Notes under the pieces: model-generated
What the model saw: only the letters and a program-made list of their open reading frames with translations
Told to the model about the DNA's origin: nothing
The model's database searches: none
DNA from: Candidatus Omnitrophota bacterium
GTDB taxonomy: Bacteria > Omnitrophota > Omnitrophia > Omnitrophales > Aquincolibacteriaceae
Reading direction: 5' to 3'
Length of the DNA: 64,000 bases
Assembly (NCBI GenBank): GCA_043821445.1
Contig: JBDRCT010000033.1
Location: forward strand, 69,391 to 133,390
Shown: positions 16,837-18,238 of the stretch, piece after piece
Position numbering within the stretch: the stretch's first letter is position 1
How the letters are laid out: each line of letters begins with the position of its first letter
Made by a program: the position numbers and the translations under genes

Positions 16837-18238
16837 TGCTTGTAATCCTTTCTTGAGGGCGCCGACTTCTAAGAAATGTCAGGATCCACCCGGCCTGACG
16901 TTTGCTGGCACCCCGTAAACGGTTGACGATCTGAAAAGCCTTTTGCCCTATTTCATGACGACTGCTCTCATTCGCGAGGATCTCTGCCGCCGCGGACGAC
17001 AGTTCGTCCGGAGCCGAGATCCTGAGAGCGCCGCCCTCATGATCGAGCTGGTGGTAGATCTTGTGAAAGTTAAAAACATGTGGTCCATGGAGTATGGTTT
17101 TACTGAAATGCGCGGGCTCGATCGGGTTCTGACCTCCGTGAGGGACCAGGCTCCCGCCCATGAACACAAGATCCGCGATTCCGTACAGATTCTTAAGAAC
17201 ACCCAACTGGTCCAGGATCTGCAAATCAGGTCCGGGGCCTTCTTTTCCTCTTGCCCCAACCTCTATTTTATTTTCATGAACGGTCGTTGGGGCAAGCCTA
17301 ATTAACCTTTCTTTTTTTTGATGGAGAATTGGGCTTGTCGATAAAACCATGCTAAAACCATATTTCTCTAATTGCTTCAAAAGACTTTCCGAACGTTCGA
17401 TGTGGCGCGGCGCGAGGATCAATTTGAGCGTCGGAAACCGTTCGCGCAATGCCCTAAAAGCGGCCGTGAGCATTTCTTCTTCCCCCGGATGCGTGCTGCC
17501 CGCGATCCACACAAGATCTTCGGAGGCATATCCCCAGGCCTGCCGCAGTCCCGCCGTATCCACCGCACTCTCGGCGGCCCATTCTGCCTGGTCGAACTTC
17601 ATATTCCCCATATCCCGCACAGATTCTTTTGTAACACCCAACTTCCGAAAACGGGCTGCATCTTCTTCCGATTGCGCGAGCACAAAATCCAGTTTTTCCC
17701 ACAGGGGTTTAAAAAGCCAAGGAAAGGTTTTATATCTCTTAAATGAGCGTTCCGAGAGCCGGGCGTTTATGATACCCACCGGAATATTCCGTCGTTTGGC
17801 TTCGGTCAAAAGGTTCGGCCAGATCTCGGTCTCCATGAGCAACAAGCAAACAGGCCTGAAAAGATCGAGAAAACGCTTCACGACCTGGGTGAGGTCGAAC
17901 GGGAAATAACAGACATGGACCCGCTCGCCCGCGAGTTTCTTGGCGATCCTCTGCCCGGTCGGCGTAACAGTCGTCAGCAACAATTCATATCCCGTCGCGG
18001 AGGCAAGCCATTCGCGGATGAACTTTTCGACGGCCATTACTTCTCCCACGCTTACGGCATGAAGCCAGACGATCTTTTTTCCTGAGAATTTTTCGGCCCA
18101 GTCCTTCGGGAAGATCCCCCGGCGTTCTTTCCACAGCACGTCCGGATCCTCGGCTTGACGGAGTTTTGTCAAAAAAATCGGGAAATAAAGGGCCCCGAAT
18201 ATCGCAAACGCCAGATTGTATAAAAAGGTTCTTAGCAT
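16784..18238 (-). CDS. waaA: 3-deoxy-D-manno-octulosonic acid (KDO) transferase, with an in-frame insertion of about 29 aa
   Basis: 484 aa. WLHAVSVGEV...IAGSTHPGEEE...GGSLVPHGGQNPIEPA. The segment HQKKERLIRLAPTTVHENKIEVGARGKEGPGPDLQ is extra relative to typical WaaA, by my recollection of E. coli KdtA. It is coded by repeat copy R-B. Confidence 0.85.
   Translation of the reverse strand: MLRTFLYNLAFAIFGALYFPIFLTKLRQAEDPDVLWKERRGIFPKDWAEKFSGKKIVWLHAVSVGEVMAVEKFIREWLASATGYELLLTTVTPTGQRIAKKLAGERVHVCYFPFDLTQVVKRFLDLFRPVCLLLMETEIWPNLLTEAKRRNIPVGIINARLSERSFKRYKTFPWLFKPLWEKLDFVLAQSEEDAARFRKLGVTKESVRDMGNMKFDQAEWAAESAVDTAGLRQAWGYASEDLVWIAGSTHPGEEEMLTAAFRALRERFPTLKLILAPRHIERSESLLKQLEKYGFSMVLSTSPILHQKKERLIRLAPTTVHENKIEVGARGKEGPGPDLQILDQLGVLKNLYGIADLVFMGGSLVPHGGQNPIEPAHFSKTILHGPHVFNFHKIYHQLDHEGGALRISAPDELSSAAAEILANESSRHEIGQKAFQIVNRLRGASKRQAGWILTFLRSRRPQERITSNGQHEELLSSLGGGQTK
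17235..17338 (-). repeat. R-B: double-hairpin repeat element embedded in-frame in waaA
   Basis: Minus-strand sequence ACAAGCCCAATTCTCCATCAAAAAAAAGAAAGGTTAATTAGGCTTGCC + CCCCAAC-loop(GAAAATAAAATAGAG)-GTTGGGG + GCAAGAGG. Aligns with R-A and R-C. Confidence 0.65.

Follow-up and report, generated by a model that had tools for sequence, protein, structure and literature searches.

A 28-codon stretch within the essential LPS gene waaA is one copy of an abundant, 81-nt, two-hairpin mobile repeat that has so far been seen only in Omnitrophota bacteria. The repeat settles inside genes without breaking them, much as the palindromic elements of Rickettsia (RPEs) do. The copy was found in a 64,000-nt stretch of a Candidatus Omnitrophota genome (GCA_043821445.1, contig JBDRCT010000033.1, positions 69,391 to 133,390), referred to here as the window, which contains at least seven copies. 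The name Omnitrophota palindromic elements is proposed for the family, which is best explained, with fairly high confidence, as a non-autonomous, selfish mobile repeat. No description of the family was found in the literature searched, and no paper was found that links Omnitrophota or Omnitrophica with palindromic elements or MITEs.

The insertion in waaA was first noticed in a sequence-only reading, which described an in-frame repeat with RPE-like behaviour and two further copies in the window. These sequence claims hold, with small corrections. WaaA has exactly 38 residues (PILHQ...PDLQ) between GFSMVLSTS and ILDQLGVLKNLYG, but the extra segment is 28 aa (84 nt) rather than the 29 aa (87 nt) originally estimated, as shown by DNA alignment with two syntenic orthologous loci that lack it (L002 and L004). 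At the corresponding position, WaaA of Aquifex aeolicus (2XCI) has 9 residues where this protein has 41 (query 297-337 against chain 252-260). The open reading frame previously referred to as the ferredoxin ORF is a truncated, 97-aa remnant of a 251-256-aa gene. The features of the window are listed in the table.

Features of the window associated with the repeat family (positions are those of the window; CM, scores against model R1 for the waaA copy and CM scores for the others)
Position	Strand	Feature	Support
16784..18238	-	waaA (3-deoxy-D-manno-octulosonic acid transferase), 484 aa; host gene of the insertion, ORF intact	100% identical to orthologue P0001, which is named WaaA and carries PF04413; phmmer hit to 2XCI WaaA, 7.5e-31; best PDB match of the AF2 model is 2XCI
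17251..17337	-	A-type copy in waaA; 81-nt core at 17254-17334, flanked by CAA at 17335-17337 (5' side in element sense) and 17251-17253 (3' side); net insertion 84 nt, giving residues 302-329 (SPILHQKKERLIRLAPTTVHENKIEVGA)	Filled versus empty alignment with L002 and L004; CM 66.5 bits, E 1.7e-16
17294..17336	-	Hairpin 1 of the waaA copy: AAGCCCAATT ... AATTAGGCTT	Predicted folds; homologous helix columns 3-12/42-51 of the family alignment (A2)
17250..17296	-	Hairpin 2 of the waaA copy: CTTGCCCCAAC - 25-nt A-rich loop - GTTGGGGCAAG	11-bp stem in both the MFE and the centroid fold; helix covaries across 109 copies, 96% paired
7163..7253	-	A-type copy inside the 97-aa remnant of a ferredoxin-like gene; read in a different frame from the waaA copy	CM 50 bits
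30047..30137	-	A-type copy between the leuA stop and the conserved start of AroE, at the extreme 5' end of the aroE ORF; supplies the N-terminal extension or start codon of the ORF	CM 64.7 bits
7016..7107	+	B-type copy, antisense to the genes, where about 595 nt of the ferredoxin-like gene are missing	CM 74.3 bits; blastn against locus L001
24333..24477	-	Two nested B-type copies, in-frame in the linker of dprA (24100-25461)	CM 73 and 38.7 bits; nesting position matches locus L021
50818..50908	+	B-type copy, antisense, overlapping the last codons and the stop of map (50891-51658)	CM 79.5 bits

The three A-type copies are real. A repeat search grouped 7164-7253, 17250-17339 and 30048-30137 into a single family, and the 20-mer TGATGGAGAATTGGGCTTGT, allowing up to 3 mismatches, gave 3 hits in the window against 0 in 100 shuffles. 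The nhmmer E-values were about 1e-27, and CM scores were 50-66 bits. The second hairpin covaries between the waaA, ferredoxin-like and aroE copies, with stems of CCCCAAC/GTTGGGG, CCTGG/CCAGG and GTCCTGGCA/TGCCAGGAC, respectively. The copies are also read in different frames: the waaA copy is read as ACA-AGC-CCA (TSPILHQ), while the ferredoxin-like and aroE copies are read as xAC-AAG-CCC (HKPHSPS and DKPNSQS).

Among WaaA orthologues, the peptide tracks the nucleotide repeat. Orthologues with the peptide carry the repeat (proteins P0002 and P0005, from loci L003 and L001), and orthologues without the peptide lack it (P0008 and P0015, from L002 and L004). P0012, compared as protein only, also lacks the peptide, although it is 96.3% identical to the filled P0002. 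Filled and empty states are patchy on the WaaA tree, and four orthologues (P0003, P0031, P0042, and P0046) retain deletion remnants. In addition, close WaaA orthologues carry homologous 27-28-aa insertions at three or more different positions, once in tandem; this one gene has been hit at three or more sites in different lineages. An assembly or binning artefact, that is, repeat-induced chimeric joins in a MAG, is very improbable. The same filled site occurs in independent assemblies from NCBI, ENA, and JGI, and the insertion is exactly in frame with matching flanks on both sides. The repeat does, however, disturb assembly, as copies are mildly enriched near contig ends (10 against 4.6 expected).

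It could also be argued that the 28 residues are a native, lineage-specific WaaA loop maintained for protein function, with the nucleotide similarity to other sites being secondary. The frame is intact, and the peptide is similar in four orthologues (P0001, P0002, P0005, and P0006). However, this reading is essentially refuted, as sister orthologues that are 91-96% identical lack the loop, remnants show that it is being deleted, and the same nucleotide unit is read in other frames and in antisense elsewhere, and also lies between genes. In an AlphaFold model with a mean pLDDT of 87.6, the insert is a surface coil with pLDDT below 50, located between two strands. Translation of the insert is inferred only from the intact frame. 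The effect of the insertion on WaaA is probably neutral or slightly harmful.

The family extends well beyond the window. A census of 889 kb of related loci recovered 189 copies, and a pattern scan of genomes gave at least 109 stretches in about 20 assemblies, where all named genomes are Omnitrophota. The viral collection gave 0 hits. Based on heuristic gene calls, 65 of the 189 copies lie inside ORFs, of which about 42 are deep inside, and hosts include waaA, dprA, and genes for GT9 glycosyltransferases. Deep intragenic copies are read in all three sense frames (15/13/5) and in two antisense frames. Elements also nest inside each other and decay by internal deletion.

Each unit comprises 81 nt (78 nt in the C subtype), in which hairpin 1 is followed by hairpin 2, and is bounded by a 3-nt direct repeat. 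Each insertion therefore adds 84 nt (or 81 nt), which is always a whole number of codons (28 or 27). The two hairpins are kept by compensatory changes. Across 109 copies, 89.7% of pair cells are paired, against 74% in shuffles, and the covariation score is 0.475 against 0.196 in shuffles, of which 0 of 500 reach 0.475. Slid controls gave 31-51%. On the strand with the A-rich loop, G·T wobbles number 210 against 47 A·C, so that wobble pairs lie mostly on one strand.

Strong covariation, a one-strand wobble bias, and folding z-scores of -1.8 to -3.9 might also be expected of a functional structured RNA module, such as a processing site, a stabiliser or a regulatory hairpin pair, that has been copied around the genome. 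This explanation is considered unlikely. Between co-directional genes the element is antisense 43 times against 17, and most transcripts would therefore carry the strand with C·A mismatches. Copies sit in unrelated genes in every frame, nest, and decay by deletion, and no association with a gene class was seen. No Rfam 15 family matched the window at gathering score, and only chance-level hits (E above 1) were obtained for two copies. No tRNA or tmRNA was found in the window. An intrinsic terminator was rejected, as no T-run follows either hairpin in either orientation (judged by eye), and an integron attC was rejected, as only some hairpin-2 variants resemble RYYYAAC/GTTRRRY and the copies lie inside ORFs.

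The flanks and targets provide further information on how the elements might move. Flanking 3-mers are identical in 64 of 106 copies, against 15.9 expected. Most of the 26 filled/empty comparisons differ by exactly 84 nt, and in the approximately 15 independent, scorable sites among them the empty site already holds one similar trinucleotide (32 of 45 nt match, counted by hand). Tandem copies share one trinucleotide. The trinucleotide is specific to the subfamily (CGG, TAG, CAG, CTG, CAA) and complementary to the junction between the hairpins: the flank nucleotide pairs with the junction in 98% of cases (columns 3-51: CG 68, UA 35, unpaired 2), with classes CG/CG/CG, TA/AA/TA, and CA/AG/CA, although subfamily inheritance cannot be fully separated from target choice.

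A fixed-length direct repeat is consistent with a classical MITE, for which a DDE transposase encoded elsewhere would bind the short inverted termini (TCC...GGA plus the hairpin feet) on double-stranded DNA and make a 3-bp staggered cut, with the hairpins being only a by-product of inverted repeats. This remains possible but is not favoured. The termini share only 3-7 nt, whereas the conserved and covarying parts are two internal hairpins with conserved loops. A purely double-stranded substrate gives no reason for the strand bias of wobble pairs, and random staggered cuts do not predict a flanking trinucleotide that is subfamily-specific, which is unusual for a target-site duplication. No parent IS was found in the sampled loci.

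Instead, it is inferred, but not demonstrated, that the selected structure is formed by one DNA strand during transposition, that a trans-acting enzyme recognises the two hairpin feet, and that the target trinucleotide is chosen by matching the element's own end and the inter-hairpin junction. Such a process would resemble IS200/IS605 or REP-RAYT chemistry more than that of a cut-and-paste MITE. Copies that land in a tolerant surface loop, and have no stop codon in the host frame, would survive and be translated as a disordered 27-28-residue loop, while copies elsewhere are lost or sit between genes. Orientation is not simple, since deep intragenic copies are mostly sense (33:9) while those between co-directional genes are mostly antisense, and a single strand-specific insertion rule does not predict this without invoking selection. 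A more speculative possibility is that the element carries its own target specification, whereby the trinucleotide at its ends and the complementary trinucleotide between its hairpins define where a single-strand-specific enzyme cuts and joins, and subfamilies retarget simply by changing three bases. The unit length would have been fixed at a multiple of three, allowing the family to live inside essential genes. This would be a minimal, programmable, coding-compatible transposon, a new mechanistic class next to IS200/IS605, and an explanation that might also apply to the unexplained RPEs.

The mobilising enzyme was not found, although whole genomes were not searched. Probing the 889 kb by tblastn with approximate IS608 TnpA, IS200 TnpA, and E. 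coli RAYT sequences found nothing below E = 0.3. All-against-all clustering of 817 ORFs from the loci showed only syntenic housekeeping families, with no protein family enriched next to copies. Ten ORFs bracketed by inverted or direct element pairs are DUF1318, CrcB, DUF190, TPR, HPr, endonuclease III, PilZ, a LacI-type binding protein, and LptF/G, plus one ORF with no Pfam match (locus L020:2400-2867), and no transposase was found among them. Solo hairpin-1 or hairpin-2 hits, which could mark a longer autonomous element, are all explained by nesting.

Among the closest known systems are the Rickettsia palindromic elements (RPE-1 to RPE-10; Ogata et al. 2000, as summarised in PMC10969869). These are also short palindromic repeats that proliferate in one lineage, are inserted in-frame in unrelated housekeeping genes as well as between genes, encode a peptide at a structurally tolerant surface position, decay with time, and have an unknown mobilising enzyme. 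The present family occurs in Omnitrophota rather than Alphaproteobacteria, has units of about 81 nt rather than about 100-150 nt, and has a defined two-hairpin architecture with subfamily-specific 3-nt flanking repeats. Several reading frames are used, and one gene has been hit at three or more sites. The RPE-like interpretation of the sequence-only reading is supported, and more strongly than the window alone could show, but the term describes behaviour and not membership: there is no sign of relatedness to Rickettsia RPEs, and no sequence relationship was shown or expected, although no RPE consensus was available for direct alignment.

IS200/IS605-derived miniature elements (PATEs) and the REP/BIME repeats moved by Y1 HUH transposases (RAYT) share hairpin ends rather than long inverted repeats, an apparently single active strand, and copies that cluster and nest. 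The correlation between the flanking motif and an internal sequence of the element may be comparable to the guide/cleavage-site pairing of IS608. Here, the putative cleavage positions abut the hairpin feet. REPs are single 20-40-nt palindromes with a 5' GTAG and are extragenic, whereas these elements are dimers, have a 5' flank of YR+G (CGG, TAG, CAG, and others) rather than a fixed GTAG, and are often intragenic. Bacterial MITEs such as Correia/NEMIS, ERIC, and Nezha are also small, non-autonomous, and present in many copies with short direct repeats at the ends, but have clear terminal inverted repeats and usually an identifiable parent IS. Occasional in-frame intragenic copies are reported for ERIC and others (PMC10969869). 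In-frame colonisation is the exception there, while at least about 17% of the copies sampled here lie deep inside ORFs.

The repeats have practical consequences, as they inflate and split gene calls, examples in this window being dprA, the ferredoxin-like gene, and the start and stop codons of aroE and map. They also create length variants among orthologues and may contribute to MAG fragmentation, although only a weak enrichment near contig ends was seen. The hundreds of copies, clear subfamilies, and many filled/empty allele pairs give unusually good material with which to work out how such elements move and how proteins tolerate random 28-residue loops. The family would be a second, independent and much larger case of the phenomenon known from Rickettsia, in which selfish repeats write new peptide loops into essential proteins, here in an uncultured phylum with small genomes.

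The window comes from a Candidatus Omnitrophota MAG, and its waaA product is 100% identical to P0001, a protein that NCBI names as 3-deoxy-D-manno-octulosonic acid transferase. Between GFSMVLSTS and ILDQLGVLKNLYG, the protein has exactly the 38 residues described in the sequence-only reading. The three nucleotide copies on which that reading rested are also real. A repeat search groups them at 69-70% ungapped identity, a 20-mer from the copy has 3 matches at up to 3 mismatches, against none in 100 shuffles, and a profile built from the copies scores them at E of about 1e-27. The second hairpin has different but complementary arms in each copy. 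As had been claimed, the reading frames differ, with the waaA copy being read as ACA|AGC|CCA and the other two as xAC|AAG|CCC. Coordinates of these and other features are collected in the table below.

Coordinates of the element copies, the genes that carry them and associated features
Sequence	Position	Strand	Feature
Window	16784-18238	-	waaA ORF
Window	16784-16836		Overlap of waaA and the downstream lpxK
Window	7164-7253		Copy grouped by repeat search
Window	17250-17339		Copy grouped by repeat search
Window	30048-30137		Copy grouped by repeat search
Window	17251-17337		Element in waaA, 81-nt core with CAA on each side
Window	7016-7107	+	Strong covariance-model copy
Window	7163-7253	-	Strong covariance-model copy
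Window	17249-17339	-	Strong covariance-model copy
Window	24333-24386	-	Strong covariance-model copy
Window	24387-24477	-	Strong covariance-model copy
Window	30047-30137	-	Strong covariance-model copy
Window	50818-50908	+	Strong covariance-model copy
Window	7016-7385		Region of the truncated 'ferredoxin' gene and antisense B-type copy
Window	7092-7385		'Ferredoxin' ORF
Window	6210-7076		DUF3108 ORF
Window	24100-25461		dprA
Window	24333-24477		Two nested element copies in dprA
Window	50818-50908		Element supplying the end of map
Window	30047-30146		Element at the start of aroE
Window	33334-33419	-	X element
Window	53676-53760	-	X element
Window	59315-59397	+	X element
Window	45951-46029	+	Possible X element
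L004	5062-5142		C-subtype copy at site C of waaA
L001; L003; L001	17580-17670; 13864-13954; 20084-20133		A-type copies or half-copies in neighbouring GT9 genes and the intact ferredoxin-like gene of relatives

Comparison with orthologues shows that the segment is an insertion. Of 75 close WaaA orthologues, most are 455-456 aa, while P0001 and the orthologues P0002, P0005 and P0006 carry the 28-residue block at this position. Syntenic DNA was obtained for four orthologues (loci L001 to L004), and the nucleotide alignment shows an 84-nt gap in L002 and L004 exactly where the window, L001 and L003 have the repeat. The empty site reads TTCATC-AGCGAAGAG-AAAAG, and the filled site reads TTATCGA-CAA-GCCCAATT...GTTGGGG-CAA-GAGGAAAAG. 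The element is therefore an 81-nt core with CAA on each side. The outcome that the sequence-only reading had named as its own refutation, the peptide occurring without the repeat, was not observed: peptide and repeat go together. The overlap of waaA with lpxK, which measures 53 nt, is present in all four of these loci.

Interestingly, the same gene has been hit repeatedly. Other orthologues carry a 28-aa block, AVPIPINRSEAEIGAVQTT..., after residue 225 (site B), and others carry a 27-aa block, QPSASDQLKGLPMTVPN..., after residue 216 (site C), once as a tandem pair. At the DNA level, these are 84-nt and 81-nt insertions with the same architecture, flanked by CGG...CGG and CAG...CAG, and the empty sites hold one CGG-like or CAG trinucleotide. 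Site C is occupied by a 78-nt C subtype (CCATCGGC...GCCGATG as hairpin 1), seen in L004 and in the proteins P0058, P0059 and P0062, with P0058 having two tandem copies there (54 extra residues). An iterated profile joins the subtypes into one family.

To examine how widely the family is distributed, a degenerate pattern over hairpin 1 was scanned against one genome for each of 185,579 species. Every named assembly is Omnitrophota or Omnitrophica, and the rest are unnamed bins. The viral collection gave no hits. In the 889 kb analysed (the window plus 113 loci, which were selected by a pattern that favours two subtypes), an iterated nhmmer search finds 189 non-overlapping copies. A covariance model finds seven strong copies in the window and 0-4 copies per 15-21-kb syntenic locus, although this model is B-biased and detects the C subtype only weakly, and on the wrong strand. 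Among 32 whole contigs from loci L006-L112, copies are about twice as frequent within 200 nt of contig ends as expected (10 against 4.6), a weak hint that the repeat breaks short-read assemblies.

The commonest subtype reads [YR]G-TCCCAATACCTATCAATTTYAGC-GAA-GCTGAAATTGGGGC-[NN]-TCC[NNNN]CTACCATTYNNGAAAAGAAAATAAAAG[N'N'N'N']GGR-[YRG]. A structure with three helices (a hairpin-1 outer stem, a hairpin-1 inner stem, and hairpin 2) was tested on an alignment of 109 distinct copies. Standard pairs are formed in 89.7% of pair cells, against 74.2% in column shuffles and 31-51% when partners are slid by 1-3 columns. The covariation score is 0.475 against 0.196 (0 of 500 shuffles reach it), and 453 cells are changed on both sides, against about 150 in the control. 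Related sequences inflate such shuffle-based statistics, but the slid-partner controls do not suffer from this. The top four pairs of hairpin 2 each show 2-3 Watson-Crick types at 93-97% pairing. For hairpin 1, an alternative register does about as well, and the two foot regions overlap and cannot both form at once. On the strand with the A-rich loops, G·T wobbles outnumber A·C mismatches, which would be wobbles on the other strand, by 210 to 47, or by 117 to 47 without one fixed pair. One strand, as RNA or as single-stranded DNA, is therefore what selection sees. No Rfam family matches the element.

A second repeat family, which the sequence-only reading had called X elements, lies between housekeeping genes of the window (ilvN/ilvB and secY/rplO for the first two copies). 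Each is about 85 nt with two hairpins. The two loops are complementary to each other (AATTTTTACGGGTT against AACCCGTAAAAAT), so the whole can also fold as one long rod. The hairpin-2 loop resembles that of the A-type element. Covariance-model hits are only weak (E 0.005-0.2). DNA folding z-scores are -3.1 to -4.9.

The three bases before TCC equal the three bases after GGR in 64 of 106 non-redundant copies, against 15.9 expected and at most 27 in 2000 shuffles, and several apparent mismatches are one-base register shifts. This repeat is specific to the subfamily (CGG, TAG, CAG, CTG and CAA) and goes with the dinucleotide between the hairpins, giving the classes CG/CG/CG, TA/AA/TA and CA/AG/CA. 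The outer flank base pairs with the junction base in 98% of copies (CG 68, UA 35). There are 26 filled/empty comparisons, of which about 15 are independent, scorable sites. Most differ by exactly 84 nt, and in the scorable sites the empty site already holds one similar trinucleotide (32 of 45 bases match by manual count). Elements also insert into each other at two fixed places: the junction between the hairpins (in loci L055, L091, L099 and L033) and the apex of hairpin 1 (in locus L021 and the dprA copies in the window). Both places carry the same kind of trinucleotide. The insertion point therefore appears to be chosen by similarity to the element's own end, which could reflect guide-target pairing, a shared recombination core, or a sequence-specific staggered cut.

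The best reading of these data is a non-autonomous element moved in trans, whose two hairpin feet and matching trinucleotides are read on one DNA strand. This appears to be the logic of IS200/IS605 and REP/RAYT systems. However, several negative results caution against committing to this mechanism. No Y1 or RAYT gene was found in the 889 kb searched, no enriched neighbouring gene was found, and no transposase was found between paired copies. Similarly, no transposase was apparent among the 64 kb of housekeeping genes in the window, as judged by eye from ORF translations without a Pfam scan. A DDE-type MITE with a 3-bp duplication remains a serious rival explanation.

Based on heuristic gene calls covering 88% of the DNA, 90 copies are intergenic, 34 overlap a gene end, and 65 lie inside ORFs. 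Deep inside genes, 33 copies are sense and 9 antisense, and the sense copies use all three frames (15, 13 and 5). In contrast, between co-directional genes the element is antisense 43 times and sense 17 times. This opposite orientation bias inside and outside genes argues against a sense-RNA function, and needs selection on the encoded peptide to be reconciled with any strand-specific insertion rule. Intergenic copies have 2.0 open frames out of 6, against 1.15 for shuffled sequence, and the consensus is therefore fairly coding-compatible.

The 'ferredoxin' ORF is a 97-aa stump, whereas relatives encode 251-256 aa (Fer4 plus AF_0155). About 595 nt of the gene are replaced by an antisense B-type copy, and the next ORF (DUF3108) starts inside that copy, its first residues, MVDKDCPNLSFASMDGYWDY, being the element read in antisense. 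The two nested copies in dprA are translated in-frame, as inferred from sequence, in the linker before its C-terminal winged-helix domain (453 aa against 399-425 aa in relatives), and in one relative the gene is called as two pieces (347 and 57 aa) at this region. Elements also supply gene ends. The last codons and the stop of map lie in an antisense copy, and for aroE, the only in-frame start codons are a GTG overlapping the leuA stop or a TTG inside the element.

On a neighbour-joining tree of WaaA, the filled states at the three sites are scattered among empty sisters. P0002 (filled) and the orthologue P0012 (empty) are 96.3% identical, and P0001 and the orthologue P0004 are 91.4% identical. 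The orthologue P0003 keeps STSPVLH-QKKEG, which is interpreted as a deletion between two AAAAGAA runs, and the orthologues P0031, P0042 and P0046 keep 11-14-residue remnants. These data show gain at hot spots, loss by deletion, or both. The tree is too weak to apportion them.

The behaviour of the family matches that of Rickettsia palindromic elements (RPE), as described in a review of MITEs (PMC10969869). Size, architecture, host phylum and end structure differ. The defining features of REP, of classical MITEs and of RPE membership are each missed on at least one point. Full-text literature searches found nothing on such repeats in Omnitrophota.

For WaaA itself, the effect is probably neutral or slightly harmful. 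An AlphaFold2 model built with 98 orthologues has a mean pLDDT of 87.6, and its best solved match is Aquifex aeolicus WaaA (2XCI; E 1.5e-23). Residues 300-338 are predicted to be coil between strands 297-299 and 339-341, with pLDDT below 50 for residues 305-326, and by sequence 2XCI has 9 residues where this protein has 41. Sites B and C fall in the coil at 217-227, which is interpreted as the inter-domain linker. All 63 invariant alignment columns are present in this protein. Although translation of the insert is inferred rather than shown, the enzyme is probably functional, with a floppy surface loop. The neighbouring LPS-core heptosyltransferase-family (GT9) genes and the intact ferredoxin-like gene of relatives carry their own A-type copies or half-copies at other positions. 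The whole LPS cluster is therefore peppered with insertions that differ between genomes.
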